A stretch of 64,000 nt of DNA from Chara braunii (Eukaryota; Plantae; Charophyceae): NCBI GenBank assembly GCA_003427395.1, contig BFEA01000024.1, positions 2,586,421-2,650,420 of the forward strand, in the 5' to 3' direction. Shown here one piece after another: positions 23,601 through 60,500 of the stretch. The notes under the pieces are model-generated. The model was not told where the DNA came from. It did no database searches and saw nothing but the letters and a program-made list of their open reading frames with translations. Made by a program: the position numbers and the translations under genes. Position 1 is the stretch's first letter, and every line of letters starts with the position of its first letter.

Positions 23601-23962
23601 TCAACTCTTTTGTCTTCTTCGTTCTCTTAGTTTTGGCCTGCCAACCGGGCCCGGGCCTACACGGCTCGGACTCTAAGCTTTCATCCCCTACCCGAAGATT
23701 AACTGCTTCCACCTTAACCCATCATACGCCCCGCCCGGGCTGATATCTCAGACCTCGTTTGTACCATAGTTCCTTACCTACCATGGGAAGGAGCTATGGT
23801 GAGAAAGGGGGTCTCTCACACCTGTACAATATTTGGTTGGGGCCAATAGGAAGGGTGGGTGGGGTCTTCAGAGGGGTTCATCTGGACAATCGAGTGGTCG
23901 AGTACTGTGGGTGACTGCCATCCGTTTAGTATCCCACCTTTACAACAACCTGGGCTTTCTAA

Positions 23963-23967
<5 letters not shown>

Positions 23968-24048
<81 letters not shown>
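23968..24048 (+). repeat. Poly(A) tract of about 81 nt between LINE A and LINE B
   Basis: Uninterrupted A run preceded by TTTT. Confidence 0.95.
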
Positions 24049-24052
<4 letters not shown>

Positions 24053-24217
24053 CCGAGGAACTAATCCGGAGAGGCGTTAATTAGAACCCTAATCCACCAT
24101 TAGCGCTAGGCGTCGCTCCGTGTCGAACGGAATAACGCATGAATTAGCGCTCCTGGACCTGGTTCCGCACACATCTCCAGGTTTGTATTTCAACAGCTCA
24201 TGGGTGTACCCACTGAG

Positions 24218-28441: not shown

Positions 28442-28444
28442 TTT

Positions 28445-32364: not shown

Positions 32365-35300
32365 CGAAAACTTGATCTACCCAAACGGATTTCTGACACT
32401 GAAAACTTGATCATTGTGGGTGATTGGAACACAGTGCTTAATCCTGGTCTAGACTCCCCCCGCCCGAAAACGCTCAGAATAGATAGCCAACTTCTAACAG
32501 AGTTCTTATCGTCTCAAAGTCTTGTTGACACCTACCGCATAATGAACCCCCATTCGTCCGGATACACATAGTATGGACCCAGGCCAAGCCCTCGCGCCCC
32601 CCAACCAAAAAAAAGCTAGATGTCATTTTTGCAAGGGGCGCACCTTGGGATCGATGCACATGGGCAAATTATAAAATTGGGACTATCTCAGACCATCACC
32701 CGGTTTTTATGGACATTATATCAAAAAACATCACTAATAAATATAAACCCCCCTTCAGGCTCAATGTTAAAATTCTGAAAGACCCAGGCATCCCTACCTG
32801 GATCATTGCTCAAATGAGGGACTGGCAAAGGGCAAGGGATCTGTTCAATAATCTTGAAGTCTGGGCTGATGTCGGGATAGGTATCATCCAGTCTGCCATG
32901 GAAAAAAATTCCAGAATAAAAGTGACGGCCAGGTCATGGAAAGAAAAATCTATACATTTGCTTATAGAGGAGGCCGAAAATTCAATGGGGGAGGACCCCT
33001 TTGCAGAGTATTATTGGTCAAATAAGCGAACAGAGGCCCGTTCTGAACTAAAACTATTGGAAACCCAACGTCAATCAGATTGGCTGGAATAGCTGAAACT
33101 CTGGGGAATTATCGGCTACAATCGCATGACAAAACTAACTTTCCGATCCCTGATACTCCGTCAAGCCAAACCTCTAATGAGAGAACTAAATCATCCCTTT
33201 GCCCTGGTTGCACCATTAGCTACAGACACAACACAAATTTGCAGCTATGCAATGGACTACTTCAAAGATATAGTCACAATAAGACGCCCTCCTGACTCCT
33301 TTGATACCGACTTGACAGAATACTCGGATTTTTGGAACAAGTCGGTGAAGTGCATTGCAAACTCAGCAAGGGAATCATTGGACTCTCCCATCTCGGTAGA
33401 AGAGGCATTGGCGGATAAATGCCCAGGGCCAGACGGACTGCCAATCGAACTCTTCCTTAGCTCGTGGGAAGCATTTGCGCCCTTTCCCTGTGAAATTTAT
33501 AACAGTGCTTTAAGAACGGGTTCCCTCCCAAAAGGGGTGGTTAGGGGTATGATCTCCCTTCTATATAAAAAAGGCGACAAAAAAGAGATACGGAATTGGA
33601 GGTCTATCTCTGTCCTTAATGTGACCAACAAGCTACTGGGTAAAATTATAGCACTCAGATTGGCGGAAATCCTACCCACTTTTGTGGGTGAGGAACAGGA
33701 TTCTTTCGTTAAAGGTAGATCCATTTTTGAAAATATTTTAACTACCTTACAAGCATTGGAGAGCGTGGGAAAAGAAAGAAGAGATGTAGAAATATTGATG
33801 TTGGACATGGAAAAAGCTTACGACAAGGTTTGTTGGGCTTTTATAAACACGACCTTGAAGAGGCTGGGGTTCGGCCCTCACTTTCGAGTCTGGACCAAGG
33901 CCCTATATGCAAATGCAACGGCCTGAGTGGTGGTAAATGGAAAACTTTCTAATCAGTTCGCTCTGACTAGATCATTGAGGCAGGGCTGTCCTCTGGCCCC
34001 ACTGAGATTCGTCCTTCAATTAGAAATACTACTCGATAACATCAGATTTAATAATAAAATTGAAGGCCTTAAGACCCCTCCTTCCCTTCATTGGAAAGGG
34101 GGAGCTATTGCTGACGACTTAACTGTAGCCTGCGTGAATTCTACCTCTTGTATGACAGAACTGCGAGTTGTGATAGATACATATTGTGAGTTGTCTGAAG
34201 CATCAATAAATAAGGATAAGTCGGTTTTTTTCCTGCCCCCTGATGTTGAGTTGTGTATGGATTGGGGACTTCATCGTATTCCTGTCAACTCGTCAAAAAC
34301 GTTCTTGGGAATTCAGGTCTCACTATCTGATTGCTCCACTATACAGGATAACATATTGGTGGGGAAAGCCACCACAAGGATTGCAAGTTAGAAAAGGAGA
34401 CACTCCCTCTCCCTTTTCGGGCGTGCCCTGATATTAACAGCAGTTGCATTCTCAACCCTTTGGTTTCCACTAGCAGTAGCAGTGTGTCTATTGGGGGAGG
34501 AAGCTTACAAGAAAATTAAAAGAGTGGCCACATGTTATATGTGGAACCCCTACATCCTGAGAAGCGAATGGGGCCTTGAAGATCCTACAAAGCTATGGCT
34601 ATGCCTAATGCTGCCTTCTTTTACACAACTTCGTCCCCAGTCCTAGACCTGGCGCAGTATCATCTTCGCTTGGAACAAGGTTAAACCCCCGGAATGGATG
34701 TCGCCAACCACCAAGTCAACCAGATTTTGTTTGACAATCCTCACATTCTGCAACAGAATGACCAGTCTTTCTCAGCAGCAAGAGGTGACTCGAACTTCGG
34801 CAAATCATGGGTCAAGAAAGGAATTCTTCAAGTAAGAGATGTATGGAACTCACAAGCATCAGATTGGGTAGACGAAGGTTCACGGAGAAGAAAACTGCCA
34901 AGATTACACAACCTCTATGAGAACTATCAGTTGCTTCTGGATGCCATCCCGCAGGCCTGGGCCTACCTGCTACAGAGTGACTCAGAAAACACTAAGGACA
35001 CCTGGGTCAGATCCCCTGATCAAAGTAACGAGATCTAGAGAATTCTGGAGTCGGGACATAACTCAGAAATCAAGGTACAGACTTGGACGCTCCATAAGAC
35101 TTTCCTGAAATCAGGCATGCTACAGAAAACTAGTGAGCAGACGGTTCCTGAAACCACAGGCCTCCAGGAAGTCCGAGTGCGGTATTCGGAAGATGGGAAA
35201 GGTAAAGCTTCTGCTCTCTTGGAAAGGGATGCAAACTCATATAGAGTAGAACCGCTCCTATTCGGTTGGAAGGGGTTGGCTTCTACTAACTCTTTTACCC

Positions 35301-36200
35301 CTCTTCTACATTATAAGTCCAAAACTGGGGTGGAATTTATGAGATCCCAGGCTAAACTGAAACCAACAGATTTGGCATTAAAGAGGGCAGCTCAACAACA
35401 AGTAGAGGGAGTCACGGAGGAAAAGCTCAGGGCTCTGTGGGTAGCATTGAAGAAAATACCTGCCCAGAAGTAAGCTGCAATAATCTGGCTATAATCCCTC
35501 TTCGTCACAGCAACTCCGGATTGGTTTTCCACTAAAGAAATGAACATCTCGATTATATGCAAACGGTGCAACTAGGGCGGGGAGAACTACTCTCATTTAT
35601 GGCTCTACTTCCCGTTGGTAGATGAGCTTTTGGTGTGGTGGTCTAAGATATGGACCAGTCTACATGGAGCAGATCTGCAATGGATAAACAATTGGTGGTT
35701 ATCAGGCCTCCTTCCCGCAGACAACAGTTTTCAAAGAGGGATTGGATACATGGGTCTCTGTTGTCGAGGAGCTTTGCTGGAAGTCATTTGGTCGGCTCGC
35801 AATGCGAAGGTTTTCAAAGGAGAGGACGTTCCCTTCCCGCAACAGAGAAACATATTCAAGAACAAAATTAGGCTGACAATAACAGCCGAGTGGACCAATC
35901 ATCGCTGGTCTCGCTTGAGAGACCTCTCATGGTTTTCACGAACATGGGTTTTATCTAACAAGTGGGTCACAGTCACACCAGATGGAAACCTCCAACTTGC
36001 AGATTGGCTAAAAAAATAGGAAGTCTAATTTTATCTGGGGGTTCAATCACTGTGGTGGTGGGTCCCTACCTCTTAGTTGGACGACATTCCGTTTTAGGTA
36101 TGTCAGGTCCACATTTTGGAAATAAGGAGGGTCTGTTGAAAACTGAGTCTTTTCACAGACCGTTTGGGTTTCTATGGATTAACTTTAAAAACTTATATTG
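32365..36200 (+). mobile_element. LINE C, 5'-truncated, same subfamily as LINE A
   Basis: LIIVGDWN and SDHHPV (APE). ORF 33126..33926 and 33927..34391 give the RT (KCPGPDGLP, LDMEKAYDKV, SLRQGCPLAP, IADD). C-terminal CKRC...HLW and end at 36019. Segments such as MTKLT.RSLILRQ.KPL.REL.HPF are shared with LINE A. Confidence 0.95.
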
Positions 36201-36299
36201 AAGAACTAATAGTCGTTCTTCAGGCTGTCGGTGGAATTACAAAGGTTTGCCTCTCTTTCTGACTCCCTCGGCCTGGCCACAGACTCAGTAGCCTTCTTT

Positions 36300-36701
36300 G
36301 TTCGCAACCCTTCAAGGGTGCGTTTTCCCCCTCTGAGAACATTTTTCGCCGTCGTTCGTTATACAGTCGTTGGAAGGTTATAAAAACAAGGCATGGCAGT
36401 TTAGGGGGTGGTGGCATCTTATTTGAAACTACAAGACCGGTACACACACACACACACACACATGCACATACATTATCCTGTCTATTGACGGGGAGCGCCA
36501 CTTGCTAGAAACTGGGTCCAGCGTCCCATGAACATCGTGAATAAAGCATCAGCCGGGACCCCACACACACACTCTCTTCAAGTTGTGTATAGCGAATATG
36601 ACAAACCATACATACAACGCAATCACTATCTTACCCTTCCCGAACCACATAAACAAACGAACTACGGGCTGCGCACCCGTGCCCTCACGGTAAGTCAATA
36701 A
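36300..36701. mobile_element. Non-autonomous Helentron/HINE-like element, internally deleted copy
   Basis: Shares both ends with 37935-38866. It has subterminal inverted repeats, a (CA)n core and a terminal CCGTG-CCCT-CACGG hairpin. Confidence 0.6.
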
Positions 36702-37319
36702 CATCGATCTTGATTCGTCAGATAGCTCACCTTTTCTGCGCTTTCAAGTTTTCAATTTTGGAAAGGGATCAAGGATGGGATGCTGGACCCGGTTTCCAGC
36801 AGAAGGTTTGAGATTATCAGTGCAGCTATGTTGTTTGTGGAGTTTGGCTCATATCTCACCTTTTACTTTGAGCGTTAAAGTTTTTTTTTTTTTAAAGATC
36901 TAAAGATGGGATGCTGGAACCGGTTTCCAACAACCAGATATAGATCATTTTAAGCAGTTAGTTTTGGTTTGTCGAGCTTGACTCGAAAGCGAAACTGGCT
37001 GAGGCTGCCAGGATAACTCCGGGTTGAATTGTGAGGGTCCCGGCCTCGTTCCAAAGGTTTTTTTTTTTTTTTTCCCAACAGAAAGATAGTTTTATTCCAA
37101 TGAAAAAGTCGGAGGCCGGGAAAATCTCCACATGACAACCCAGAGGAAAAACTGGGGCGATTACCTAGCTTAGGCTAGCTGGAAACCGGGTCCAGCGTCC
37201 CATAATGCAGGCTAGCTGGAAATCGGGTCCAGTGTCCCTTAAAACTATCCTTCGTGGAACAAAGTAGCAACTGGACTAATACATTAAAACAACAAATTTC
37301 TTCAAAACAGAGGGGAGGG

Positions 37320-39110
<1,791 letters not shown>

Positions 39111-41150: not shown

Positions 41151-41378
41151 CTTTCCAAAAAAAAAAAAGAAAACGTTACCACGCGAAACATTTCAAACAA
41201 TTTGGTGAGCAGTGGAGCGAGGCGACATGTTCCTTTGTGGGCGTCGTCCGTCCGTCCTTCTGTCCTTGAGCCTCTTGTCCGTTCCCTCTGCTTCTACTTC
41301 TCCTTTTTCTTTGATCGTCTTGTACTCGTAGGTGGCTCTTTGCTCACGTTCTTTCTTGTGCCTGCTCATCCGTGCTTG

Positions 41379-41677
41379 TGGGCCTCGATCCACTACTCTC
41401 GACAGGCACAAAAGACAAAAAATATGGTGGTGTATCTTTATTTCCATGTTCTAGCGGAAGATTCACTCTCGCTTTGCACATTTCGAGAGTGGTGGAGCGA
41501 GGCCCTCGCTCCACCACTCTGGAAATGTGCGAGAGACAAAAATGTGGCGGGCGCATCTGGCCATGTTGTAGGCGGAAGTTCATTGTCATTTTGCACATTT
41601 CGAGAGTGGCATATGTGCGAGGCCTACTCACACTGGGACCGTTTTTCTTTTTCTTTTGTGTTTAGGGAGTAGGCCCT
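41379..41677. mobile_element. Cluster of Harbinger-like TIR fragments including a 55-nt near-perfect palindrome
   Basis: GCACATTTCGAGAGTGGTGGAGCGAG-GCC-CTCGCTCCACCACTCTGGAAATGTGC at 41476-41530. The TIR core is shared with the MITE at 50176-50323. Confidence 0.6.
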
Positions 41678-44224: not shown

Positions 44225-44740
44225 TTGTATATCGCGCTCAACTTCATCAACGTGGCGAGCCTTGTACGTGAGAGGCGCAGTGGAGGGAGGAGTTACGAAG
44301 ACTGAGAAATTGAATGATTTCAATGTGTCTATGTTTTTTGTTTTTTATCCTTTGTTCTGTGTAAAAAAATTGTAAAACACTGAAAGAAGTAAGAAGAAGA
44401 CATTGTTTTCTGTCTTAGTGGTTTGTCTGTCTCTTTGCCTCTGTCCTGTCATTTTTTCTCTTCTTCGCTTGTTTTATTTCTTCTTCTACTTCTCAGTTGC
44501 TTGGTCGGAAAGTCTGGTGGTGCCGCAAGGCGGATCTGGGGAGAAGCCCCCTGAGGAGTGCCAGGAGCGCAGCCTGGCCGAAACGCGTCGGGGAAATTGC
44601 GCGTTTTTTCTGAGAACTGTACATGCGGAGAAGAAATATAAATCCGTTGGTGCGTGTACGAGAAGCAGTCTATGGCCACTGTTTTCACTATTCTTCTACT
44701 TCACGTGTTTGCACTCTTAGTCAATAGTTCTGTGACAATA
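44225..44740 (+). mobile_element. Penelope-like retroelement 3' fragment / pseudo-LTR
   Basis: Contains a type I hammerhead with a palindromic mini stem III and is bounded by (TA)n on both sides. Its 5' part (ALN/STWRALYVRG, paralogue PALNLSSTCLALYVRG at 52395-52445) resembles the tail of a GIY-YIG ORF (inference). Confidence 0.6.
44547..44593 (+). ncRNA. Type I hammerhead ribozyme, Penelope-type
   Basis: CCCC CTGAGGA G(T)GCCAGG-AGCGCAG-CCTGGCC GAAA CGC GTC GGGG. Core is CUGANGA/GAAA/GUC, stem I is CCCC:GGGG, stem II has 7 bp, and the palindromic ACGCGT forms stem III. Predicted cut after C44589. Confidence 0.9.
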
Positions 44741-44960: not shown

Positions 44961-46713
44961 TTGTCACAGCCCCTCGTTTGTTGTCCTCTTCTCCCTCTCT
45001 GCCTACGGTTTACCGGGCAGTTCTATTTGACGATATATATATATATCGTCAATGTGCTATGGTGACTTGGCTTTGAAAGAGTGATGTGGAGTTGAGCATG
45101 GGAGGTGATAATCGTATCGATTCAATAAAGAATAAAAAAATCGTATCGGATCCTGTGCTAGCTGCGGCTGTGTGGCGCTTTCGGTTTCTCTCTCTCTCTC
45201 CCGCTCTCTCAGGGCGTACTCACACCAGGACCTTCCTGGGTGTATCTGACCGCAATTACAGCCGGACTTGAATGTGTCTGACCGTAGTTACGTCCTGATC
45301 TGAGTCAAAAGAGTCCATCTGTGGTGTCAGTATTTCAATGCCGTTGATTGATCCCGTGTGTTGGGGTTCTGATCCCATCTACCGCCCGACTTCGCGCTTT
45401 CGATGCGTCGGATGGAAGGATCGGGGAACTGTTCGGTAGAGGCTCGGCATAAACGGATTGGGCCTGGCTTTGCTTCGCCGAGGATGGCGACGGCAGCGGC
45501 CCTGGCTGCAGCGCGGATGATGATGGTAATCAGGTTCCCTTGTGGTCGTTGACGAGAAAGAGTATGGAAAACAGATCGATGTGGTGATGGATTTATGGTT
45601 ATGGGACGCTGGGCCCGGATTTTCTAGTAATATTCATTCTTAATTTCATTGAATATAATTTCATGAGAATCATGGATATTATGGATATTATATTCTGGAT
45701 ATTATGAGATATCTATATATATCTTGATATATCTAGATAGAGATATCCAGTATATATTTCTCTTTCTTGATTATCCCAGCACGTGTGGGGAAAAAAAAAA
45801 AGTTGGATGGAAAAGAAAAGAAAAAAAAAAGAAAGCATAAAGAAGGATTTATGGTCTGAATGGCGCACCGATGCCACGAGTCAGGGGAGGGATAGCAGCG
45901 GCGGGAAGGCGGGGAGGGGCGGGTTATAGGAGACGAAGGGGGGTCGGCGGTAAGAGATAGGAAATGAAAGGCGGGGGTGGGTAGAGGAGATAAAGGGGAT
46001 TTGGGGGGAGGGATACGAGATGAACGAAAAAGGGGGGGCTAGGACATGAAAGTGGGGGGGGCGGGGGGGGAGATAGGAGATGAAGCCGGGGTGGGCAAGG
46101 AGATTGGAAGAGGAGAAGAATGGGATGGAGGATGAGCACTGGCGGCGCGGCGAGGGGGAGGCAGGAAGAGAAGAGGAAAAAGAAAAAGGCACTGCAGTGA
46201 ATGCACCCTCTTTTACCTCCTTTTGCAACCCTTCTTTGGCCCCTTCTTTCATCATCCATTTTTTGTTTTCTTTCTGTTTTTGCTTCTTCTTATCCGTGAT
46301 GGAGACGAGTGTCAACGTCTGACTGGCAACTTTCTCTGCTGTCTTTACTCGAATAAAACGTACGTTCATTATCACTGCATCTAGTCTGATCGTTGCCACA
46401 GATACGGGCGTAACGACTCTACGTTCTATTCAGGGGAAGGCGGTCGTTTTTTCAGTACTCTTCCCTCTGCTGCACCAGAAGTGTTTGCCTCTCCATAGCA
46501 TATAAAGGCGGGTCGGCAAGTGTTGTAGGCTTGTCCCCCCTCCCCCCCACACGAAACAAGAAAGGGGTATAGGGTTTGTGTTTGCCAATGCCTTAGTGCC
46601 GCGAGGGAGTAACCCTTGTCTCTTCTCCGCCAGCTGCTCCACCCTCCAAGATCCCCTCCCTTCCCCCGATGCCTGATCGCGCCCTGCCTTTTCCCGTTGT
46701 TTTTTTTCTAATC

Positions 46714-46921
46714 GTGCTCGATAGGGAAGTGTGTTTGATTTAATTATTTTCGGTAATTAGCTGGATAATCAAGTTGGAAAAACTAAAATAAAAAAAAGAG
46801 ACAAAAAGGAATCGGCGTGCTCGATAGGGAAGTGTGTTTGATTTAATTATTTTCGGTAAGTAGCTGGATAATCAAGTTGGAAAACGAAAAAATAAAAAAA
46901 AGAGACGGAAAAGGAATCGGC
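46714..46921. repeat. Tandem duplication, 2 x about 102 bp
   Basis: CGTGCTCGATAGGGAAGTGTGTTTG...AAAGGAATCGGC occurs twice. Confidence 0.9.
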
Positions 46922-47096
46922 GAATTCTTGGAGTCTTCCGTCCGCCGAGTATACGGGCGTTGACGGAGGCTTCTAGGCCCCATCTGCATCAGGACGAGAA
47001 TCAGTCAGTGATCTTTCTTTCTTTTTTTTTTAAATCATGTTTAATTCTCTTTTTATTCATTTTTAAAATAGCTTTCTAGTTCTTCAAAACATTATT

Positions 47097-47162
47097 ATCC
47101 TTGTTTCTCTCTGAGAGAATATAATATAGATCCTTGTTTCTCTCTGAGAGAATATAATATAG
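47097..47162. repeat. Tandem duplication, 2 x about 33 bp
   Basis: ATCCTTGTTTCTCTCTGAGAGAATATAATATAG occurs twice. Confidence 0.9.
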
Positions 47163-47729
47163 CAAGACTGTTTGCAGTCGGTTCGAGCTCTTTTAAACGT
47201 GCGGACAGCTAACTGCGCAAGGTAAGAGTGTCATCTCGGACACTCATCAAGCATTCAATCAATTAATCGATCAGCTCCCCCCAAAAAAAACAAAAAGCAA
47301 TCAGTCAGGTGACGACACGTCATTTGCTGTCGCCTACTTGGGTGCTCATCACTCGGTCTGGAACCATTACTGCTCAGGCTAGGGGACTTGTTGGACTGAT
47401 TTGCGGACGTAATTGGAGCCAGTTACATCGGGGATGGGCCGTAATTGCAGTAAGATACATGGAGGGAAAGTGGACTGAATTTGGCCAACACAACTGCACG
47501 GGTGTGTTGCGTGCCACGCGGCGCGTGATCCACCCAAATTCGGCCGGCGGGCAGTGCGAAGCGGCGGTTAGATCGACGGAATTTGGTCGTATTCGCGGTT
47601 AGTACATCCATACCTTGCGGAAAGTACAAGTGTGAGTGAGTATATGGTCCCCCTCGCTCACTCGTTCGGTCACTCACTCGCTCACCAGACAATCGCCGGA
47701 TGAAGCAATCCTTTATTATCACTAATTCA

Positions 47730-47932
47730 TTATAATTAGGGGTAACTTCGGCGCAGTCACGAAAACAGTTTGTAATTGCACTTCCGGCAATCCCGCGAAT
47801 ACAACACACCCCCACGCGACCCCACCGGACCCGAAACGTAGGTCATATACATTCAGCATTACCGGCCCTTTTGCCTCAAGTGCAATTACAAACTCAATCC
47901 CTGACTGCGCCGTAGTTTTCTCTTATAATTAA
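47730..47932. mobile_element. Probable old MITE with imperfect TIRs of about 57 bp
   Basis: AACTTCGGCGCAGTCA...GTTTGTAATTGCACTT..GGCAA is inverted against TTGCC..AAGTGCAATTACAAAC...TGACTGCGCCGTAGTT, with TTATAATTA at both ends. Confidence 0.6.
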
Positions 47933-48598
47933 CTGTTATGTAACCGTATAGTAACCAGTTAATACAGTATTTATGTGGTAAATGAATCAGTGAATGAATT
48001 GAACAAGATAAGTTCACCAGCAATCAATCAATCAATCAATCAACCAGTCAGACTCTAATCTAATCATTGGACGACTGCAAAACTAGCAAGAAGTCTGATC
48101 AGCCGTCGATTGGACTAATTAAGCCGTCAGTGGCATTCACGCGGTACATGATTGCATCAATCGAGGGGGGAGCAGACAAGTGAATTTTGGTGAAATTCCT
48201 GAACGAAATACACACAGTAAATTTTTTGTTGATGAATGAATTTGTCGATCAAACGGAAGGAAAATCAATTGACTGCCAAATGCGCCCTCGCCATCTCATG
48301 CCAGAGTCATCCCGTTTCATTCTCTTTTTTTTTTCCCTATATATATATTTTTTATAACGGAAATCACTTGATCTGGGTTGGTAGGGGGGGCGGGGGGAGA
48401 CCTTTGCCTACGAAAAGAGAAGTTGTCTTTCCGCCGTCTCGTTAATACTTCATGACTCTGAGATTGTTTGCCAGACTTAAAATCAGATTGTCCAACGAGT
48501 AATCAATTAGAAAAAAACTAGTTGGTTCAAAAAAAAAAAGAATTAGTCAGTTAATTATCACAAGAGATAAATTATTTGCCAAGCACTTAATACTCTAC

Positions 48599-48663
<65 letters not shown>

Positions 48664-48786
48664 TCAAATTTATGAGTATGTGAGAAAAAATCGTTAGAGC
48701 GGGAGAGGAAAACAGTCGGTTGTTCGCTTTTAGCAGCGGGCAACATCCTAACGCACTATTTCCAAGCTCATTGCTTGATCGATTGG

Positions 48787-48822
<36 letters not shown>

Positions 48823-49054
48823 TTGATTGATTGACATTCCTGGAAGTTCATCATGCGATCAAGATGGGGTACACAAATACAAATGTTGCTGTTGACTGAG
48901 GAGTCGATGAGATCAAACCGGTACATAAACAGAGATGCATCCGTTGATTGATATGGATTGAGTCCTGAGTTCGGATCATTCGCGAATCTTTAAAGATAAT
49001 ATACTATCATGTTATATTAATGGGTCGCTCCCTCCCTTTCTTTTCCTTTGCGTT

Positions 49055-49475
49055 TGTGTGTGTGTGTATGTAGATGTGTGACTGTGTAAATTTGTCACTG
49101 TGTGCGCAAGTGTGTGTAAGTGTGTAAGCATGTAAGTACGTGTACGAGTAAGTATGTGTGCGTAAGTGTGTTGTCATTTTTCGCTATACACAGCTCCGCA
49201 AACAAAAAACACGTGTGTGCAACTGCGTGTATGTGTGTATGTGTGTGTATGTGTGTGTATGTGTGTGTGTAAGTGTGTGTGTTTGTGTGTGTGTGAGTAA
49301 GCATGTACGTGTGTAAGTGTCCAAAAGTGTTAAGTGTGTAAGTGTGTAAGTGATAAGTGTGTAAGTGTGTGTGTAAGTGATAAGTGTGTAAGTGTGTAAG
49401 TGTGTAAGTGTGTAAGTGATAAGTGTGTAAGTGCGCAAGTGTGTGTGTGTGTGTGTGTTTGTGTGTGCGTCTGTG
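49055..49475. repeat. Compound (GT)n / (GTGTAAGT)n simple repeat
   Basis: Direct reading. Confidence 0.9.
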
Positions 49476-50175
49476 TTGTACAATCAAACGCCAATCAACG
49501 GTTACGTATTTGTGTCGTGGAGCATATTTTGTCGAAAATTCATCGGAGACATTCTAGGTAAGGGGGAAAACGGAGAAAAAGAGGGAGAAAAGGCAGTCTA
49601 AATCGCTACCGTCCTGCTCAATTCGCGGAACACGGAGGAAAAGGTGCGGAACGTCGTAAGAACGGCTCGGAACAGAAATGGCGCGGATGAGGAAAACGCC
49701 GCGGCGCGAAACAGGAAAACGGTAATCTTCTCGTGGATTATGTGTCCGACGATTGGTGGTAAACTTTTTGGCGGCAGGATGATAAAGATCACGGCGACGT
49801 CAGCCACTTACACACGCCTACGCAATCCTCTGTCCTCCGCAATCACACGATTGCTGATGCCACCTCATCAGGATTGTCGTCGTGAGTACAATCATAGTCA
49901 TCATCATCATCATCGTCATCATTGTAATCATCATCAACCGCCTTGTAAGCATCGTTGTTATGATGATGATGATCATTTCTCGTCTACAAGCGTTAATTAG
50001 CGATGGACGCACGTCACGCAGAGTTTTCTTGTTTTTGTTTCCTTCCCCCCCCCTCCCCCCCCCCGCCCTCTTCTTCTTCCCCTCTCCCTTGGGTTTTTTG
50101 TCAAAGGAAGTCTGGTAGGGACTACAATCGATCCCGATTGCAGATTTTGGCCGAGCGCACATTTGATCGACCTAA

Positions 50176-50323
50176 GGGCCTCGCTCCACTGCACAACATT
50201 CTAACTAATTGTATCTAGATCTGCTGATGATCTCACATATTCGCAATGTCGGCTCCATCCGAATGTATTCCGGCCATTTTCTGCCCAGATTCATTCAGAA
50301 TGTTGTGTGGTGGAGCGAGGCCC
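50176..50323. mobile_element. PIF/Harbinger (Tourist-like) MITE, 148 bp
   Basis: 27-bp TIRs GGGCCTCGCTCCAC(TG/CA)CACAACATTCT with 2 mismatches; flanks are TAA and TGA. Confidence 0.8.
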
Positions 50324-50669
50324 TGAACCCGTCATCATCCTTCGTCGTATATGAACATGACAAGTTCCTTTTCTCCCTGTTTTTATAAAACTAAGCTAGA
50401 TTGTTCTCTCAGTTCAACCTTACACTACCTACCTACCACTACTACTAATTATAGTATTAGGAGGAAACCCATAGCAGCCAGCACGAGTTCACAATGCCTC
50501 AAACGAGGGAACATGCGGGGACTGCGCCTGACCATTACAAATCTACATACGTATATATATCTCTCCTCCTCCCAGTCCCCCTTCCTCTCGACGTCGTGTT
50601 GATGCTAATCTGCGGGGTTCTTTGTCTTACTGACAGCCTGCTCTGCCACGTCGACGGCATTCGTCATTC

Positions 50670-51579
50670 ATGCGCCGACCCCACCAGATCAGACCTGGCT
50701 TTCCAGTGGTGACCGATTTGGATCTGCGGGCAGATCTACCAAATGCTTGTGGCTTGACAGCCACAAATGTCTGCCTACAGGCTTATCAGCGTCAATGTTA
50801 TACTGCATCCCATTTTGTTACGATTGCTTATCAGCTTGACGCTGTTGAAAATCAGTTTTTGTACGACCATAATGGTCCACCTCCTGAAGGTAGTAATTAT
50901 ACCACCTCAGGAGGCTTTACTGTAAAAATGTGTAACAGTTAGCGTTCCACGGTCGCCACTTCTTATGTATCATGTGACGCGAGGCGATGACCTTAATGAC
51001 CATCCTCATATTTCTGACTGCATTTTGCACAGACCCGGACATTATATGGCACTCATTCGTGCAGCTGCCTAGTGGGAACTGTGGGATGGTGGGACGGTGA
51101 TTCAGGCTATTTTTAACATACATGAATTTCTGTGTGCATTGCGGAATCATACTTTATTCTGGATTATTGACCGACTCTCGTGTGACACCTGTCGGGACAG
51201 GGACGCGGTGTGTCTTGGCTGCGGAATTCATCACCTATGCCATCGACATTATCAATCTATTGTAGCCGCTTCCGTCTGTGCCGAACGGTGTCCAACATTT
51301 CCTCATTGTACACATCCCTATCACCCAGATATTTGTTGTCCCTTTTGTGTGCAAGGACACTATCAGGACTGCATGATGCCGCACTGTGATAAACGTCCTG
51401 CTGCTTTTTTGACATGTGGACAGCATGTTCTTTGTCAGGACTGTTTTGATGGGATGGTACGTGCTAGCCGTCCTACTGAATGCTGTGCTGACGCAGTTCT
51501 CCTTGGGTATCCTTGTGAACATCCACGTCATCCTCAGCGTGCTTGTCCTATCTGCCGGGGTGGGGGCTCCTCTTCCTGA
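50670..51579 (+). pseudogene. Josephin (ataxin-3-like) deubiquitinase domain fused to two tandem RING-like zinc fingers; one frameshift and one stop
   Basis: CGLTATNVCLQ..IAYQLDAVE..SNYTTSGGFTV matches ataxin-3 CAQHCLNNLLQ..IAHQLDEEE..GNMDDSGFFSI. After a +1 shift at the A5 run (50924-50928) the frame reads ILHRPGHYMALIRAAA*WELWDG..EFLCALRNHTLFWI, and continues into CDTC..CGIHHLC..CPFC and C..C..CGQHVLCQDC..CPICR. Confidence 0.82.
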
Positions 51580-51617
51580 CTGGTCAATAGAATCGAGCAG
51601 GTCAGGAGCAACACTAA

Positions 51618-52064
51618 GGGCGTCGTTAGACACTCCTCGCGAGGAGTGGACGTGAGTCCAAGGATTTCATCTTTGTTCCATGTGTCCTCGGAGATGAAAT
51701 CGGAAATGAAAATGTGAAAACACTCCGAGGACAAATCCTTGGGCTCCGAGGATGTCCCAGCCAAATCATCCTCGGCTCCAAAGGACCTCGCGAGGTCCTT
51801 TGGGGCCTGAGGATCCGTGTTTCACGGAGAGGAGAGGGCATGCACGTAGAGAGACGTTACAACCGAGAATTCTGATCGTGGCGGCACCATATTATCTGAA
51901 AGCCTGAAGCACTTCTCCTTTTATTTTTCTGACATTGCTCCGAGGATGAGTCCTAAAACCGATGCTTCGAGGATGAGTGTAATGAAGACGACAAAAAACC
52001 TAAACTTTTCCGAGGATTCATCCTCGGAGCCCGAGGATGCCTGAAGGAGTGTCTAACGACGCCC
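51618..52064. mobile_element. PIF/Harbinger MITE, 447 bp, with internal CCGAGGA/TCCTCGG repeats
   Basis: Perfect 20-bp TIRs GGGCGTCGTTAGACACTCCT and a TAA target-site duplication on both sides. Confidence 0.92.
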
Positions 52065-52726
52065 TAATTGTTGGAGAGATAGAGCTTTCGATACTACCAA
52101 CAGATGTGGAGTTGAAGAAAGAAGTACAAATTTCTGAAGAAAAGAAAAAGGAGAACAAGAAAAAAGAAAAATATGTTGAACTTTGTTGTGACAATGGCAA
52201 TTGGTTTATCTGTGGGATGTGTCATGTCATTTGCTTTGTTTGATTGACAGGCCTTCCTCTTCCTTTGTCTTTTCTTTGATTGGATCCTTTTCTCTTTCTC
52301 TTGCCTCTGTGAGGTCTGGTTTCCTCCTTTTCTTTACCTCTTTGCCTTTTGGCTGCGTGCAAGTGGGTCCTTGTGACACACCGGGATGGGGGCAGCCAGC
52401 GCTCAACCTGTCATCCACGTGCCTGGCCTTGTACGTAAGAGGTGATGAACAGGTGGGGCTTTCCTTCTTTTCCTTTCCTTGTTTTGTCTTTTTCCGCCTT
52501 TGCACTCCGATTCACAGTGTGACAATATATACCGTCATGCGGATAAAGGACGGTTACAGGTTGAGGTGTGGCCCATCAAACGTGTAAAAACAGTTGTGTA
52601 TCTTCAGCTCGAAAGTGGAAAACTTGCCAGTTTTGTCGTTTTCACATTTTGCGAGGCGTGGAGTGAAGCCCTGAGAGCCTTCTGCTGTGCAGGTGGAGGT
52701 CCGACGAAACAGTGAATCACGTCCGT

Positions 52727-52759
<33 letters not shown>

Positions 52760-52996
52760 TTCACAACCCCCCCCACTCAGCCCCCCTTCTGGTTTTCTCA
52801 TTTGCTCCCCTCTCAGCGGACAGTTTCCCCGCATGGTTCTTTGTGGCAATATGCATGTAAACATTATAAAGGTACAATTATTCTTGGCCGTGAGCACCAT
52901 TTTCTCTTTAACTGAAATGGCAGGTTGATTCAGAAAAAGATCAGGAAAAAAAATCACAAGTTGACCAAGCGTTTGGGGAGAGAAGATGGAGTTCTC

Positions 52997-53100
52997 TGCA
53001 ATGATCTCACATGCAGGTGTCATCAAACAAGCTCAGCAGAGAATGTTCATCAGGTTTCCAAACACGCATGAGTAGCCAGTACCAACAGAACAGGGAACTT
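52997..53100 (+). repeat. Isolated fragment of the 390-bp repeat unit found at 61074-62072
   Basis: TGCAATGATCTCACATGCAG.TGTCATCAAACAAGCTCAGCA...AAACACGCATGAGTAGC is shared. Confidence 0.9.
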
Positions 53101-53700
53101 GTTTTATTTCATGAATTTACACAGCTGAAAAGTCTGGCCACTCCTATGGCCCCAGCAACGTACATCCGACAGCAGCTTCAGTTATGTGTCTCGCTAGTCT
53201 CTCCCTCTCTCGCCCTCTCTCAGTATGTACATGATCTCCCTCTCTTCCTCTAGTATGTACCCACTCTCTTCCCTTTCATGTATGTACACTCTCCCTCTCT
53301 GCCTCGCGTTCTCTATGCCTGGATCTATCCCTGAATACAGCCACCTCCTTGGTCTCCAGCGGCTATGGCCGCCTCCAACTTGCTTCACGCCGTCCTCCTC
53401 GTTACCACGGGGCACAAGGTCGCAATGATCACATAAACTGCGCAGTGCTTCCGCAACATGCAACTCTGAATGAATCGCCAAGGCACTGTGCTTGCTTATA
53501 TAGTTGCATGGACTGGGTTGGTCTGTCTGGACCGGCACCGGCTGCTTGGGCCTGTGTGCAGTGGACTGCATATTTCTTGGGTACCGGTGCCTTCCGGAAG
53601 GTGGTGCTGCAAGGTTGGACTTTCGACTTCTGGACCTTTCCTTTGGTACCAGGCCCAACCAGTAACGACTTGACTTCTGGACTCTTCAGGCCCAATTAGG
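53100..53700 (-). mobile_element. Probable LTR fragment adjoining the Gypsy integrase
   Basis: Non-coding, with TATATAA on the minus strand near 53495-53501 and CT-rich repeats; termini not resolved. Confidence 0.4.
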
Positions 53701-56032
53701 CGGAATCATCGATCTACATGAAGGGAAATCCCGAGTAGTGAAGGAATAACTTTGATGCATGGAACACAGGGCACGTATGCAGGTGGGGTGGAATCTTTAT
53801 AGTATACGATGGCCCATCTGCGTTGCCCTTGACTTCTAAAATCTGCCATGGTCCTATATATGCAGGCAGTAGTTTCTGCGATATTCCTTCCTCAGGCACA
53901 AACTCTTTATGCTTCACCCAAACAAGATCACCTACTGCGAACTGTGCAGGGCGCTGGTGCTTGTTAGGTTGTTTGATCATCTGGAATGGTGCCTTTCGGA
54001 TGTTCTTTGCAACCCGCTGGATTGCAAATTCGTGCGTGCCGGGAATTTGATCAGGCTTTAGACAGTCTATGGGACGTGGAGGTGTCCACCCTCTATGCAG
54101 CTCATTAGGTGTCCTAGATGTAGCTAAGTGGACCTAGTTATTATAAGCACTGGCTACCTTAGCTAGGTGCTCGTCCCAGTCTCCCTGATCAGGGCAGATA
54201 TGTAGATGTNCAGATATGTAGATGTAGCTAAGTGGACCTAGTTATTATAAGCACTGGCTACCTTAGCTAGGTGCTCGTCCCAGTCTCCCTGATCAGGGCA
54301 GATATATACTTTCGTCAGTTGTCGCCAGTGTTCCCTTGTGAACCTACTGTCTCTGTCACTAACTATAGACAAGGGGTGACCGAAGTTTAAATAAAGAACT
54401 CCTTAACGACCAGATCAGTCTGGGCTTCTGCAGGTAAGGGTACAAACACAACAAATTTACTAAATATATCGACTATCACCATGACTTGACTCTTTCCGTT
54501 CCTACTTCTAACTTTAGTATCCATAAAGTCTATAGATACGGACTCTCCAGGGCTTGAGGGAATAGGCAATGGTCTCAACAGTACAAGGGGGGCCTGCGTC
54601 GAACTCTTGTTCCTCTGATACACTTGGCAACCCTGTATATAGCTAATGTAGTCATGTTTCATACCCGGCCAAGTATATGACCTGAGCAGGGTCGCGTATG
54701 TCTTTCTCCAACCAAAGTGTCCTTCGGTGTCATGACATCCCCCTATGATGAGACTCTTAATCTCTTCATCATCAGGTGTGCAAAGCCTATTATGGGCATA
54801 AGTCCTCTCGGACAACAATCCATTGGTAGTCAAGTATCTCATGAGGTGCTGTTTGCGCTCTCCTAATCATCTCTCGATATATAGGTTTTTTTTTGTAAGC
54901 ATCTCTGATCTTTTGCTGCACATCAGCTCCAACGTCAAGGTAAGTCAGTGTGTCCCCAAAGAAGTCCGCTCGTCTACTAAGGGCATTGGCTACTACGTTG
55001 TACTTACCTTTGACATGCTTCAGCTCAAAATCAAGCTGATCAATCTCAACCCATATAGTCAACTTAGGGGTCATATGGGCCTGAATCTTCAACCATCTCA
55101 AGGTCTCATGATCTGAGTAGACCTTGAAATGTCGACCTAAGCGATAATGTCTCCAGTGGTCTAGCGCCTGTCTAAGGGCATATAACTCTAGTTCGTAGGT
55201 AGAGGCGGCTACTTTCTCGGTAGGTAGTCTGCAAGACATGAACTCTACCGGTCTATAGTCGTCTCCATCATTCTGCTGCCATTCGGCTCGCGTCAGTAGT
55301 CACTACGAAAGGTAAGGATGGGTCAGCTACCTTTAGGACCGGGTACTCTATCAACGCCTTCTTCAACTTCTTGAAGGCTGAAGTGCAATCCTTGTCCCAC
55401 TTCCACGCAACTTCTTTCTTTAGTAGTCTACGCAGTGGGGCGGCTATGGAAGTGAAGTTTCTTAAACTTCCTATAATAGGTCGGGAGTCTTAAGAAGGAT
55501 TGCAACTGTCAAAGTGTGCGACGCCGGCCAATCACGAATTGTCAAAGTGTGCGGTGCTGGCCAATCGCGAATAGCTGTGATCTTAGCATCTTCAGGTTGA
55601 CGTTGCAGATGTCCGCAACGAGATGGACACGATGAACTCCGTCCTCATCGACTACGCAACCCATTCACATTTCTTTGGGGTGAGCGTAAACCGAGCTTCT
55701 CTCAACTTCGTTAGGACGTGCCTAAGATGCTCCTGATGTTCCTCTAAGGACTTGCTAGATATCAGGATGTCATAAATTACTACAAATTTGTCTAGCCATT
55801 CTCTAAATAGGTCATTCATGCATCTTTGGAAGGTTGCAGGGGCATTAGTCAATCCGAATGGCATAACTACAAACTCATAGTGACAATAGCGAGTCCTGAA
55901 GATTGTCTTATGTTGGTCTTCTGACAATACCTCTATCTGATGGTATCTGGACTTGCATCCCTACACCCTGTCTAACATCTATTCGGGGCAGTGGTTCAAT
56001 GTTCTTGACCGTGATTGCATTCAACCCCCAAC

Positions 56033-57547
56033 TGTTACATGCCCAGTTGGGCGATGTGCATACAAAACCGAGGATCTGCAATGTGCTAGAAAGGACTGAA
56101 TGGACAATGCAGTGCAAGTAGAATCTCGACAAGCAATGTGCATTCCGATACATAGTGCTTTATAGCGCAACTCTTAGATACAAGACCTTACCTGACTGAG
56201 ACTGACCTCCATCACATAGTACAAGATAACGAAGCTGAGTGCTAGAATACTAATGATTAGCCCAATCAATGTTTCAACGCAGACCAAACATACATCATGC
56301 TCATCCCAAGGTGTGAAGGGAGCCTGGCGCTATACACAGGGAAGAAGTGCCAGGTCCAGACATACACAAACGAATAGGAGGGGATTAGACGAAGAGGAAC
56401 GGGGAGATGGGAAAGTCGTCAACACCAAGTCTCGTTACGAGTCCCAAATAATCCCTCTTCAAAATGTCTGAAGTCCAATGTCGAGTCTGGATCCGGATGT
56501 CACCAAGCTCTCTCTCTCTCTCGCTCTCTCTCTCGCTCGTAGTCTGCTGATGCAGTGAAGTCAAACAATGAGAGGGTGAGAAGGAGATGGTGGACTGAGA
56601 AGAGGAAGAAGGAGAACTCTCTCTCTCTGACGAGCCAAGTACTAACCTGTGAAGTTGGCGTTGTGCTGCAGGTACCTCGAAGACGAAGCTGGAGCAACGA
56701 CGCTGGCCTCTGCCCAATCTCTCTCTCTCTAGTACTACTCTAGCTGCTATGGCGCCCAGCGCTGAAGACTACAGCTAACGCTGCTTCTACTCCTGCAGCG
56801 CTCCTCCAGAGTGCTGCTGCCGAATCCTGAAGAGTAACGACTGCCTCCTGCCTTGCACGTGAGGTGCCTGGGAAGTACCTAAGAGCTACCTCCCAACTAC
56901 CTGCAGCCTGCAGGGCGGGCCAGTCTTATATAGTGCTGGCCCGTCCAGGAGGCTGCTCTTGCCAATGCCCAAACGTGCTAGACCCAGAGGAAGCTTCCGG
57001 GAAGTTTCCGGGTAGCTTCTGGCTAAAGCCCGAGGAAGCTTCCGGGGAGTTTCCAGGTAGCTTATGGCTAAAGCCTGAGGGCCTATAGGCCCTTGTTTTC
57101 AGGCTGTCAGGCTGAAACGACACGGGGCCTGTAGACCCTGGTTTTCAGGCTGTCAGGCTGAAACAGACACGGGACCTGTAGGCCCTGGTTTTCAGGCTGT
57201 CAGGCTGAAACAGACACGGGACCTGTAGGCCCTGGTTTTCAGGCTGTCAGGCTGAAACAGACACGGGACCTGTAGGCCTTGGTTTTCAGGCTGTCAGGCT
57301 GAAACAGACACGGGGCCTGTAGGCCTTGGTTTTCAGGCTGTCAGGCTGAAACAGACACGGGGCCTGTAGGCCCTGGTTTTCAGGCTTTCATGCTGAAACT
57401 GACACGGGGCCTGTAGGCCCTTGTTTTCAGGCTTTTGGCCTGAAAACAACATGGGGTCTGTAGGCCCTCGCTTTCAGGCTTTCAGGCTGAAAATGACACG
57501 GGCCTGAAAAGGGCCCGTGCAGCCTGTTGCAGGCGCAGCATGTAACG
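56033..57547. mobile_element. Nested solo-LTR-like insertion (about 1.5 kb) interrupting the Gypsy RT
   Basis: Splits RMCID / xxGLNAITVKN. Termini TGTTACATGC ... GCATGTAACG contain a 9-bp perfect inverted repeat. TATA-like site at about 56926. No clean TSD. Confidence 0.8.
57080..57501. repeat. 47-bp tandem minisatellite, about 9 copies, inside the solo LTR
   Basis: Unit GGCCTGTAGGCCCTGGTTTTCAGGCTGTCAGGCTGAAACAGACACGG. Confidence 0.95.
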
Positions 57548-60500
57548 TCTATGCACATCCTCAACTCACCTCTCTTCTTAGGCACGAAAAGAACCGGTGC
57601 TCCATCTGGCGAGGAGCTTGGCTTAGTCCACCCTTTCTCTAGTAGTTCATGTAGTTGCTTGCTTAGTTCATCTAATTCTTTGGGAGACATTCTATAGATG
57701 GGGCCTATGAGAGTTTTGCTACCAAGCTCAATCTCGATCCTGTGTTTGATTTCTCTTTCTATGACTCCAGATGGGGCTTTCCCCACGTCAATGAACTCTT
57801 TCAATAGTTTCTCTATCTGGGGTGGTATCGGCTCCTCTTCTCTCATTCCCTCGTTGACCGGGCTCACATATGCTACGAAGACTTGGTCTCCAAGCTTCTC
57901 TTTGACTATGTGCCTAGCGAAAACAGAGGCATGCATGAGGCAAAGGGACAAAAGGGGAATCAATTCCAGACTTGTGGAATAACCTCATAAATCTCCCGTC
58001 TTTACGTTGACATGGGCGGCTTCTCCCCAATCTGTCACTAAGATGATGTCAAAGGGAGGGCTATCTTCCACGAGGAGGGTAAGGGAGTGTAGTACCTTCT
58101 CCATCTGCTTCCCATCCTCCAACCGGAAGTATGCCTTGATCCCCTCTACGTACTCCTCAACTCACATCTCTCTATTATCGGCGAGTCGACTCACTATTGG
58201 CTTATCCAGTTTTTGCACCTTCATGCCAAGATGCAACTTCGCCAGACCCTTTCTACTAATAAAATTATGGTTCGATCCACTATCAACTAACACACCTAGT
58301 CGTGTGCTACTAATCTCTACATCCCCTAAGATAAGCTGTCCTTTTTTCTTCTTCATTTCGGCCCAGGCTTTGCGACGAGTGATCAGCTCATCACCTATGC
58401 CTGCGAGGGAACCACCTAGAGAGACTCTGACACAAGTAGTCTCTGGACAACTAGCTAGGTGGGGGCCTGGGACAGCCTCTGCCGTTGGGGTCTTTGGACA
58501 TAAGGTATCTTCATCAGCGCGCGCTTCTTCTACCTGGGTGTCTAAAGCCCTTGCAAGGGCAGCTGCTACCCCTACCAGCTGTTGCCTTTTGGGGAGCAAC
58601 TATAGTTAGGACAAAAGGAAACTATGTGGTCTGCTTCACCACACTTTAGGCAAGTTCCTTCCGCTAACCGGCGTTTCCAATCATCATAGAAGACGTTCGT
58701 TTTTTTCCAAGGTTCCCCTGCGCCTATCCCTGGGTGGGCAGGGTACCCACTCCCCTTTCCTCCATTAAAACCCGTGCTGGCAAGGGCATAACTACCTCTG
58801 CCCCCGCCTTGTTGGGAGGCAGGCGGACCGGATCTACCTTGTGGGGAACCATGACCCCTACCACCCGCAGAGCAGCCTTGATTGCTGCACTCCTCTCGGC
58901 AGCCCTGTCCTCTTCCTTCCCTACCGCGGCCACCTCGACCTCGGCCGCCACCTCCTCCACGTCCTCCCTCGTGGAGTACAGCAGCATAGCTACCTCCCTG
59001 AACTATATTGCTGTCCTCGTCCAGACCATACTCTATATCGTCGTAGCTAAGGGCCTCGCAACCTCCTTAATCGAAATCAACTACAAGGTTGTCCTTGCCC
59101 ATAATGTTACAAAAGATGGTTTTGCCCTTCCAGTGTTTCCCCTTTTCTACATCCTTGCACCAGTGGCAGTTAGCCTCCTGAACATGAGTAAGCCATCACA
59201 ATCTGGTCCTCCTCTATGATTCGCGGAGTGTGGATATACGTCCTAACAGTAGCTTCCCACCTGTCATAGTTCTCTTCGCTCTTTCCGTAATAGGTTTCGG
59301 GGAACTTGACCTCGACCTTCTCCCTCTTTATCTGGCTCTCGTCTATAGGGCCGACTACCTTTCTCTCTGGAACCCCTGGTCCTCCTAAGGCCCTTTCTTT
59401 TGCAACGGTCCTTACTATCTTTCTAGTGGCTAGCTGTTCCAGTTGCAGTGTGTAGTTAGTTGTCTGTTCGTGCACTTTGTGGTGCATGGCCACTGCAAAA
59501 TTCTTCTAGGCACTTCGCTGTTCCGTCTGTAGGGCACTTATGCGGTCCACGGTCTTGCGTAGTGCCGCGGTCTCCTCACAGGAGTGAGCACGGCGTCAGT
59601 CAAAGAGGGTCACTCTATTATCTATATCCCCAGGCTGATCCTTCTTTGCCAACAACTGCCTCTTCAACTCTTCTCCTTGTTCTCGCAGCCCCTTTTCTTT
59701 GAAACGGTTTTCACATGTTAGCAGTAGTGAATGCAGATTCCAGGGCTCGATCCTTAGTTCTCACCTTACCTGTGTACAGTATATGTGTCGACCCCGAGTG
59801 CTTGAACCCGTGACCTGTGTTTTGACAGTTGTTGTTGTCTATCGTAGGTCTATGTAGTGGTAGGGGTCCGATCTGTAGATCTGTCAAGTTGAAGTCACAG
59901 CCCTGTAGAGGTCGTAGCTGTAGGAATCTTGAAAGGTCAAGGTCGTAGCTGCAACAGTCCTGAAAGGACAAGGTCGTAGCTGCTACAGTACTCGAAAGGC
60001 CAAGTCCATAGGCTTCCGGAAGGTCCGGAAGTGGCCTTTCGAAGCTGCCTCACGTTTCAGTTAGAGGCAAGTGGGCAAGTGGCGAGCCCAGCTGCATTAC
60101 GACGGCAGTGCGACTGCATTGAGTTGGCAGTGCGAACCGATGCAGTCAGCGGTACAGGTCCAGTCAGTCCCAGTCCAGTCAAGCAAGTACCATGAGGGAC
60201 TGTGTGCACCATGGGCCGATGGAAAGGGGCAGACCAACGAGTTACAGGAGTATAAATCAAGAGGCAGCGCCCATTCATTCATTCATTCCTGCGTAAGCCA
60301 TGCGGAAGCACTGCCACAGCGACTTTTGCGAGGTGGTCTGCAGTGAGCCCGGAGACGAAGTGGGCGAGAAGGAAGTTAGCCATAGCGATAGGGAAGCAGC
60401 GGCCATAGCCGCCATAGCTGTAGATGTGTGCGGGGGTGTGTGAGTGTACACAGTGTGTTGCGTGTGGGATATCCAGGGTGATCCTGTGTGGGAGCAGCAG

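Follow-up and report, generated by a model that had tools for sequence, protein, structure and literature searches.

The window (the whole 64,000-nucleotide stretch of Chara braunii DNA analysed here) holds on its forward strand a decayed, 5′-truncated, TA-flanked copy of a very high-copy repeat (Table 1), which is very probably a Chlamys-type Penelope-like retrotransposon. At the left boundary, TATATATA directly precedes position 50560 in the window sequence, and the family sequence diverges upstream of this position in 51 RNA reads from run X21, 179 RNA reads from run X22, and 10 contigs from run X2. TA runs border the element on both sides (50552-50559 and 52526-52531). DNA depth inside the element was 10^3 to 10^5, compared to 6.9 in a unique flanking contig of the same DNA run (X1), and summed contig depth at sites in the ORF was 8,453 to 164,936; these sums do not equal copy number. 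The contrast between ORF and flank thus amounts to three to four orders of magnitude. Depth rose near 50560, reached its maximum at 52323-52524, and collapsed past 52525 (86,899 to 1,188 to 3.9 across this position in X1). That the 3′ end is the deepest part is expected given the 5′ truncation. By eye, the sequence beyond the loose end at 50560 resembles the LGRR..RS.SPP linker of Chlamys-1 and -6. Searches by tblastn with relatives detected neither a reverse transcriptase (RT) nor an endonuclease in the truncated window copy. No second copy of the ORF or of the 3′ end adjoins the element as a pseudo-LTR or partial tandem copy; such partial tandem copies forming a pseudo-LTR are frequent in Chlamys elements but not obligatory (PMC8557442, in the portion available). 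No hammerhead ribozyme family was among the 16 weak Rfam matches for positions 46000-54000, none of which reached the gathering score. The locus itself is ordinary, a single dead fragment among many.

Table 1. Features of the retroelement copy in the window.
Feature	Position	Strand	Basis or remarks
5′-truncated copy, very probably of a Chlamys-type Penelope-like retroelement	50560..52525	+	1,966 bp including 450-bp MITE; DNA depth
Left TA run at 5′ truncation point	50552..50559	.	Sequence
Arg/Pro-rich linker remnant of polyprotein ORF	50562..50741	+	Frame agrees with N-terminal part of P0003
Josephin-like domain, end approximate	50742..51168	+	Asn 50742, Cys 50748, His 51040, Asp 51085
Two frameshifts (A run; near 50958)	50924..50959	+	tblastn, DNA contigs
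Premature TAG	51070..51072	+	CAG in nearly all family copies
Cys/His repeat 1	51181..51348	+	C-x2-C-x9-C-x2-H-x2-C-x2-H-x29-C-x2-C; similar to repeat 2
Cys/His repeat 2	51370..51558	+	C-x4-C-x9-C-x2-H-x2-C-x2-C-x33-C-x2-C-R; RING-like (weakly)
ORF stop codon	51577..51579	+	P0004 and P0009 ORFs terminate at same place
MITE within 3′ UTR	51615..52067	.	~21-bp terminal inverted repeats, TAA on each side
3′-UTR motif (~90 nt) common to Chlamys-1, -4, and -6_cBra	52355..52445	+	14-mer exact, remainder by eye
3′ terminus GTGACAA, then TATATA	52519..52531	+	Sequence

Other repeats surround the element. Just 5′ of the insertion, positions 50404-50454 hold a short fragment of a different, very deep repeat (44,138 in X1), inside which RNA molecules start at 50417 (X22). 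A 150-bp element with 28-bp inverted arms lies at 50175-50324, with short matches near 41203-41517, and contigs exist that carry its arms around different middles. On the minus strand, ORF lists read by eye yielded decayed pieces of an LTR-retrotransposon pol at 53714-58600 (chromodomain-like end, integrase, RNase H, RT, and protease). Several decayed LINE-like RT/endonuclease stretches occupy both strands of 18900-38200, and the repeat at 928-4383 recurs near 14914-17020, partly inverted.

A preliminary description of this locus had joined two ORFs (50670..50942 and 51097..51579) into one protein of about 302 aa by repairing one extra base in the A5 run at 50924-50928 and one TAG at 51070. 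The coordinates of both ORFs, of the A run, and of the TAG were confirmed. The TAG also held as a lesion, whereas the single extra base did not: two frameshifts and three stops were found. In a tblastn search of the window with P0003, an intact relative, the alignment traversed frames +3, +2, and +1, and 50927-50959 proved to be an 11-codon stretch in a third frame, containing a TAA at 50933. Compared with the window, aligned DNA contigs show two differing bases at the A run and one near 50958, which together produce the net single shift seen originally. The three-frame alignment and the contig differences rule out the model of a single-base frameshift. As proposed, the TAG is a former CAG: position 51070 reads CAG in 164,798 of 164,936 depth units in X1, in 76 of 78 RNA reads in X21, and in 278 of 288 in X22. 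The T allele itself was recovered from DNA contigs (~138 depth units in X1 and 163 in X2). Upstream, the TGA at 50631-50633 is CGA in 8,376 of 8,453 units of family depth (X1), and the ATG at 50670 corresponds to Leu in P0003; the frame therefore continues upstream. With the TGA at 50631, the TAA at 50933, the TAG at 51070, and the two shifts, the copy carries three stops and two frameshifts, and it is unable to make protein. An upstream exon ending in a splice acceptor near 50636 had also been suggested. The RNA-read joints listed include none at this position, and the frame runs on upstream in the family, leaving the upstream-exon model unsupported. Rather than a stand-alone 302-aa enzyme, the ORF is most likely the C-terminal end of a retrotransposon polyprotein of ~1,800 aa.

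Transcription of the family was assessed in two oligo-dT RNA runs (X21 and X22). Over the ORF, most first mates mapped to the minus strand, a pattern that denotes sense RNA in most stranded libraries. Only 23 of 1,544 and 133 of 4,794 reads in the two runs were at least 99% alike to the window. The family base was present at 50903 in 153/153 and 22/22 reads, and several other sites were similar. Because nearly every read carries the family base, the RNA derives from other copies. We conclude that other family copies are transcribed in sense and the window copy barely, if at all; the samples may lack the insertion. Separately, 112 reads in X22 continued beyond 52531 into sequence that includes CTGATGAG, a hammerhead-core-like string, with an agreement of only 0.56; these perhaps represent an expressed copy beside a ribozyme-bearing repeat.

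Craig et al. 2021 distinguished three types among the Chlamys elements of C. braunii; in Chlamys-1, -4, and -6_cBra, a C-terminal extension comprises a Josephin and a conserved Cys/His domain, the latter being called "unknown" (PMC8557442, main text and supplement in the portions available). By eye, the three consensus ORFs finish with the same Josephin and paired Cys/His repeats as the window. The Chlamys-1 and -6_cBra consensus sequences terminate in GTGACAA, and File S1 gives a (TA)n target preference for both (PMC8557442). We compared the window with the published consensus sequences by eye and by exact short motifs. None of five exact 13- to 16-mers from the window ORF occurred in the available consensus file, in which line breaks can mask matches. 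As judged from sequence, the window family is likely an uncurated sister subfamily of Chlamys-1 and -6. The earlier statement that no Josephin-RING-RING architecture had been described does not hold, as Craig et al. describe the layout with its fingers unnamed (PMC8557442). Because the fusion was already described, only the RING reading and the predicted ubiquitin-editing role are new. By eye, the Chlamys-4_cBra consensus keeps a Gln four residues ahead of the catalytic Cys (PMC8557442).

Among 756 candidates, a single close homologue of the window protein was found, P0003 (261 aa, 68% identical to the window, from a 1,084-bp contig). One open frame of P0003 covers the Josephin domain plus the first Cys/His repeat, and the protein ends within the second half. 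P0004, which we read as Chlamys-6-like, keeps both repeats in frame with the end of the Josephin and matched the window at 41% over 197 columns (tblastn, E = 9e-42); overall, the window protein is ~40 to 47% identical to relatives read as Chlamys-1 and -6. The fusion in one intronless frame, first deduced from the damaged copy, is borne out by intact P0003. With both halves in one frame there, the objection that they never share a reading frame fails. A phmmer search with P0003 over 1.84 billion representatives returned 12 further proteins; of the 10 whose records were checked, 5 are named C. braunii proteins. In five of the 12 (P0010, P0011, P0013, P0014, and P0015), a Penelope-type RT or thumb precedes the Josephin by eye; the RVT_1 match of P0014 had a Pfam E value of 0.004. 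In P0017, a single 1,282-aa ORF without any finger spans GIY-YIG (E = 0.018), motifs of an RT, and a Josephin (E = 1e-9). No longer homologue of P0003 was found, and a profile search gave only five already-known proteins, both results being weak evidence. Scans of viral and metagenome contigs with P0003 yielded no relative. The preliminary description had allowed for mobile-element or viral cargo. Repeat anatomy, TA-flanked ends, and RT-bearing relatives uphold a mobile-element origin; nothing points to a virus, the viral contigs scanned holding no relative, and the domain is most likely a polyprotein tail instead of captured cargo.

P0009 (Logan; 310 aa from a 1,291-bp contig) begins with a C2HC-like finger at its N terminus and further contains a Josephin and only one RING-like finger. 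Its Josephin scores 29.2 bits, above the Pfam cut-off, with Ser at the third triad position, and it suggests that the Josephin-finger pairing exists outside the window subfamily. The C. braunii models P0008 (GBG64487), P0007, P0011, P0005, and P0006 join Chlamys Josephin halves to unrelated exons, for example of an amino-acid transporter. These models are likely annotation artefacts, a warning that a number of Chara gene models containing half a Josephin probably represent fragments of transposons.

The Josephin motifs and the Cys, His, and Asp codons listed in Table 1 had been assigned from the window sequence; their positions were confirmed, and the family profile matches ataxin-3. In Pfam, the window read-through (with X at the breaks) matched PF02099 at E = 0.007 and 16.6 bits and intact P0003 at E = 1.6e-5 and 25.2 bits, both below the 26-bit cut-off; this gathering score was reached by 4 of the 12 other relatives. 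A family profile of 10 element-borne Josephin domains matched ATXN3L, ataxin-3, and JOSD2 at E = 1e-6 to 1e-4 (ataxin-3 itself, 1e-6 to 3e-6) and placed the triad in register with Cys14, His119, and Asn134 of ataxin-3, the following matches (USP12 and others) having E values of at least 0.05. The match came from the profile only: phmmer of the window read-through against the PDB gave nothing relevant. The spacing of 15 from His to Asp/Asn, noted before as equal to that of ataxin-3, holds in 11 of 13 family proteins (P0003 and its 12 phmmer relatives; the pattern permitted 15 to 17), the third residue among these 11 being Asp in 8, Asn in 1, and Ser in 2.

The oxyanion-hole Gln had not been evident upstream of the Cys, and its absence is confirmed and family-wide. 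Gln at -5 from the Cys occurs in one of eight natural domains and is absent from the window and P0003, and Asn at -2 is conserved in seven of the eight. Since Gln is lacking across natural domains, its absence is a family trait, not decay. The oxyanion-hole residue of ataxin-3 is Gln9; the Asn at -2 could replace it in the element domains. With the triad kept but the Gln lacking family-wide, deubiquitinase (DUB) activity is plausible, and we lean slightly toward predicting it for intact copies.

The preliminary description had read the C-terminal half as tandem RINGs. By score, this reading stands weakly for repeat 2 and not for repeat 1, a RING-like variant that returned no row in the Pfam scan and whose sixth ligand is His in each of the window, P0003, and P0004. 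All five Pfam rows for repeat 2 were RING-type, the best being zf-RING_5 (E = 0.0044, 17.4 bits versus a cut-off of 27.9), and the repeat satisfies a relaxed eight-ligand RING pattern but not the strict C-x2-C start. Both repeats have extra Cys and an H-P-x-H-P motif within the long loop. A four-sequence profile of the fingers matched the arenavirus RING protein Z (E = 0.0073), which is not known to be an E3. In RING E3s, the Arg after the last Cys is the "linchpin." The window, P0004, and P0009 all retain this Arg, as do, by eye, the three published Chlamys consensus sequences in their last repeat (PMC8557442). AlphaFold models of the Cys/His part were of low confidence (pLDDT 42 and 47). Foldseek with the pLDDT 47 model gave no match at E ≤ 0.001, and its rows at E values of 0.7 to 2.8 were mostly RING, ZZ, and B-box fingers; given the low model confidence, we do not count them as support. 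Giant-virus RING clusters are among the neighbours given by the ESM Atlas for the fingers (score ≤0.82; recognition 1779), a lead only. We found no paper naming these fingers RINGs; in the available text of Craig et al., the single "RING" of the main text refers to Naiad, and Figure 6 might label the fingers further (PMC8557442). On these patterns and scores, the fingers appear weakly RING-like, and E3 activity is a doubtful prediction.

The MITE in the 3′ UTR, which we take to be Harbinger/Tourist-like, has many internal inverted repeats and a depth level of its own, in thousands. Downstream of it, the shared 3′-UTR motif sits in the deepest part of the element. An exact 14-mer of it, from 52383, has two occurrences in the PMC8557442 supplement (584,131 characters), in the 3′ UTRs of Chlamys-1 and -6. 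The ends of the motif are able to pair as a 9- to 10-bp helix; compared with shuffles, the motif shows no superior folding (z = 0.52), and Rfam contains no match to it. These elements lack a hammerhead, and the motif may be the structure that their RT recognizes. A second TA-flanked, 5′-truncated Chlamys stub, comprising 3′ UTR only, lies at 44233-44738 on the plus strand. It shares an exact 20-mer with the Chlamys-1 and -6 3′ UTRs in the available supplement, is close by eye to Chlamys-1_cBra, and has the Chlamys-1 terminus (PMC8557442). This stub seems to be interrupted by an unrelated insert of ~200 bp near 44495-44690.

Together, these results suggest, with high confidence, that the locus is the decayed tail of a Chlamys-type element whose intact copies likely encode one polyprotein with a tail predicted to shed ubiquitin. 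A full-length element would have been reverse-transcribed at a nicked TA run by target priming, with synthesis halting early, after ~1.5 kb, to leave a 5′-truncated copy; this copy would then have decayed and received the MITE in its UTR. The polyprotein of intact copies would comprise an endonuclease, an RT, a linker, the Josephin, and two RING-like zinc fingers; for the window's particular subfamily, we infer the upstream RT. Acting in cis as a predicted deubiquitinase, the Josephin would keep the polyprotein or the ribonucleoprotein from the proteasome, and a role in ubiquitin protection is cited by Craig et al. for the Josephins of Dualen elements (PMC8557442). The fingers, as predicted zinc-binding modules, would mediate interactions, with an E2, perhaps through the last finger, or merely with some partner.

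The main rival keeps the same element but takes the Josephin for a protease that processes itself or acts on something other than ubiquitin, cleaving the polyprotein or a ubiquitin-like modifier, with the fingers as passive zinc or nucleic-acid modules; we give it a substantial probability, somewhat short of even. It gains from the helical hairpin, ~10 residues shorter than in ataxin-3, from the lack of the ataxin-3 oxyanion Gln in six of the seven natural domains reaching that position, from P0017 with its Josephin and no finger, and from viral protein Z as the nearest solved RING by profile. Cleavage mode, too, varies within the fold among bacterial Josephins (bioRxiv 10.1101/2024.07.24.604956, in the part available). 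Weighing the other way, the Asn at -2 in seven of eight domains could substitute for the Gln, the window, P0004, and P0009 all retain the Arg directly behind the final Cys, and the VTD domains of Helitrons, which also carry putative OTU DUBs, have shown DUB activity (PMC9741609, in the part available). Mobile elements thus do use deubiquitination, and a tail that sheds ubiquitin is the reading we prefer.

Two further explanations dispense with the polyprotein. Either a non-autonomous derivative or an independent small element could account for the locus, consisting of only a Josephin-finger tail and a Chlamys 3′ end and relying on RT in trans. This unlikely arrangement would accord with protein searches that gave no RT-joined sequence of the window subfamily and with P0009, in which a zinc finger, a Josephin, and one RING-like finger make up the protein. 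However, the P0003 and P0009 contigs are too short to reveal an RT, family reads continue upstream of 50560 in a frame that by eye is Chlamys-linker-like, and the published sister families are full-length (PMC8557442). A host gene (an ataxin-3/JOSD paralogue with RINGs and an upstream exon) or viral cargo is less probable still. Josephin homology, the branch-point/acceptor-like string near 50636, and the giant-virus RING clusters among the ESM Atlas neighbours would speak for such an origin, yet depth is thousands of times that of the flank, the ends are TA-flanked, the 3′ terminus is that of Chlamys, no splice joint at 50636 is among those listed, and viral contigs are without a relative.

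Beyond the preferred reading of a Chlamys-type tail predicted to shed ubiquitin lies a stronger proposal, that of a Chlamys type-1 ubiquitin-editing module in which an active Josephin with Asn in place of Gln is combined with an E3 of a new RING subtype bearing an inserted Cys/His loop. We consider it improbable. If true, a retroelement of thousands of copies would protect the protein it encodes and also attach ubiquitin to a restriction or chromatin factor of the host. Were both halves active, a retrotransposon would manipulate host ubiquitin through a single protein combining DUB and E3 and would offer a test of why mobile elements repeatedly acquire deubiquitinases (Dualen and Chlamys a Josephin; Helitrons OTU and VTD). 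What is new here, the RING-like reading of a domain left unnamed by the paper that described it, is a modest addition.

Compared with known systems, the element domain has the order and spacing of Cys, His, and Asn (Asp) in common with ataxin-3, ATXN3L, and JOSD2 (PF02099; PDB 1yzb, 3o65, and 6pgv), together with the motifs C-x5-N, IAxQLD, and GxF. It differs from this group in having no Gln at -5 and no UIMs and in lying inside a mobile polyprotein, and its helical hairpin region is the shorter one noted above. Repeat 2 resembles RING-HC fingers and arenavirus Z (zf-P11, PDB 7ckm_B) in a relaxed eight-ligand pattern with C-x2-H-x2-C-x2-C and in the terminal C-P-x-C-R, whereas the element fingers differ from them in the x4 first pair of repeat 2, in a 29- to 33-residue loop with extra conserved Cys and H-P-x-H-P, in the His at ligand 6 of repeat 1, and in scores that all fall below cut-offs. 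A20/TNFAIP3 embodies the idea of a DUB joined to ligase-type fingers, with an OTU protease and a different finger type; the likeness is functional only, and the A20-like editing proposed in the preliminary description stays a prediction. The Pfam scans returned no OTU or zf-A20 row, and there was no sequence match to A20 or to Helitron DUBs. Helitrons resemble the element in being mobile carriers of DUB-type proteases and differ in the protease families, VTD and OTU (PMC9741609). Another comparison is with the Dualen non-LTR retrotransposons, whose Josephin-related cysteine protease was proposed to counter the degradation of proteins (cited from Kojima and Fujiwara 2005 in PMC8557442) and is labelled JCP in a figure legend (PMC9977147, in the part available); the available part of PMC6431247 does not mention Josephin. 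Dualen elements likewise bear a Josephin-like protease within a retrotransposon polyprotein, but they are LINEs with APE and RLE endonucleases and no Chlamys 3′ end. The published Chlamys elements differ from the window copy in that the type-1 consensus has GIY-YIG and RT in the same ORF, both absent from the truncated window copy, and in that Chlamys-4_cBra has, by eye, four Cys/His repeats in two pairs where the window has two (PMC8557442). With Chlamys-1, -4, and -6_cBra the window copy has in common the Josephin followed by paired Cys/His repeats, the 3′-UTR motif, 5′ truncation, very high copy number, and the lack of a canonical hammerhead; the GTGACAA terminus and insertion at (TA)n are shared with Chlamys-1 and -6_cBra (PMC8557442).
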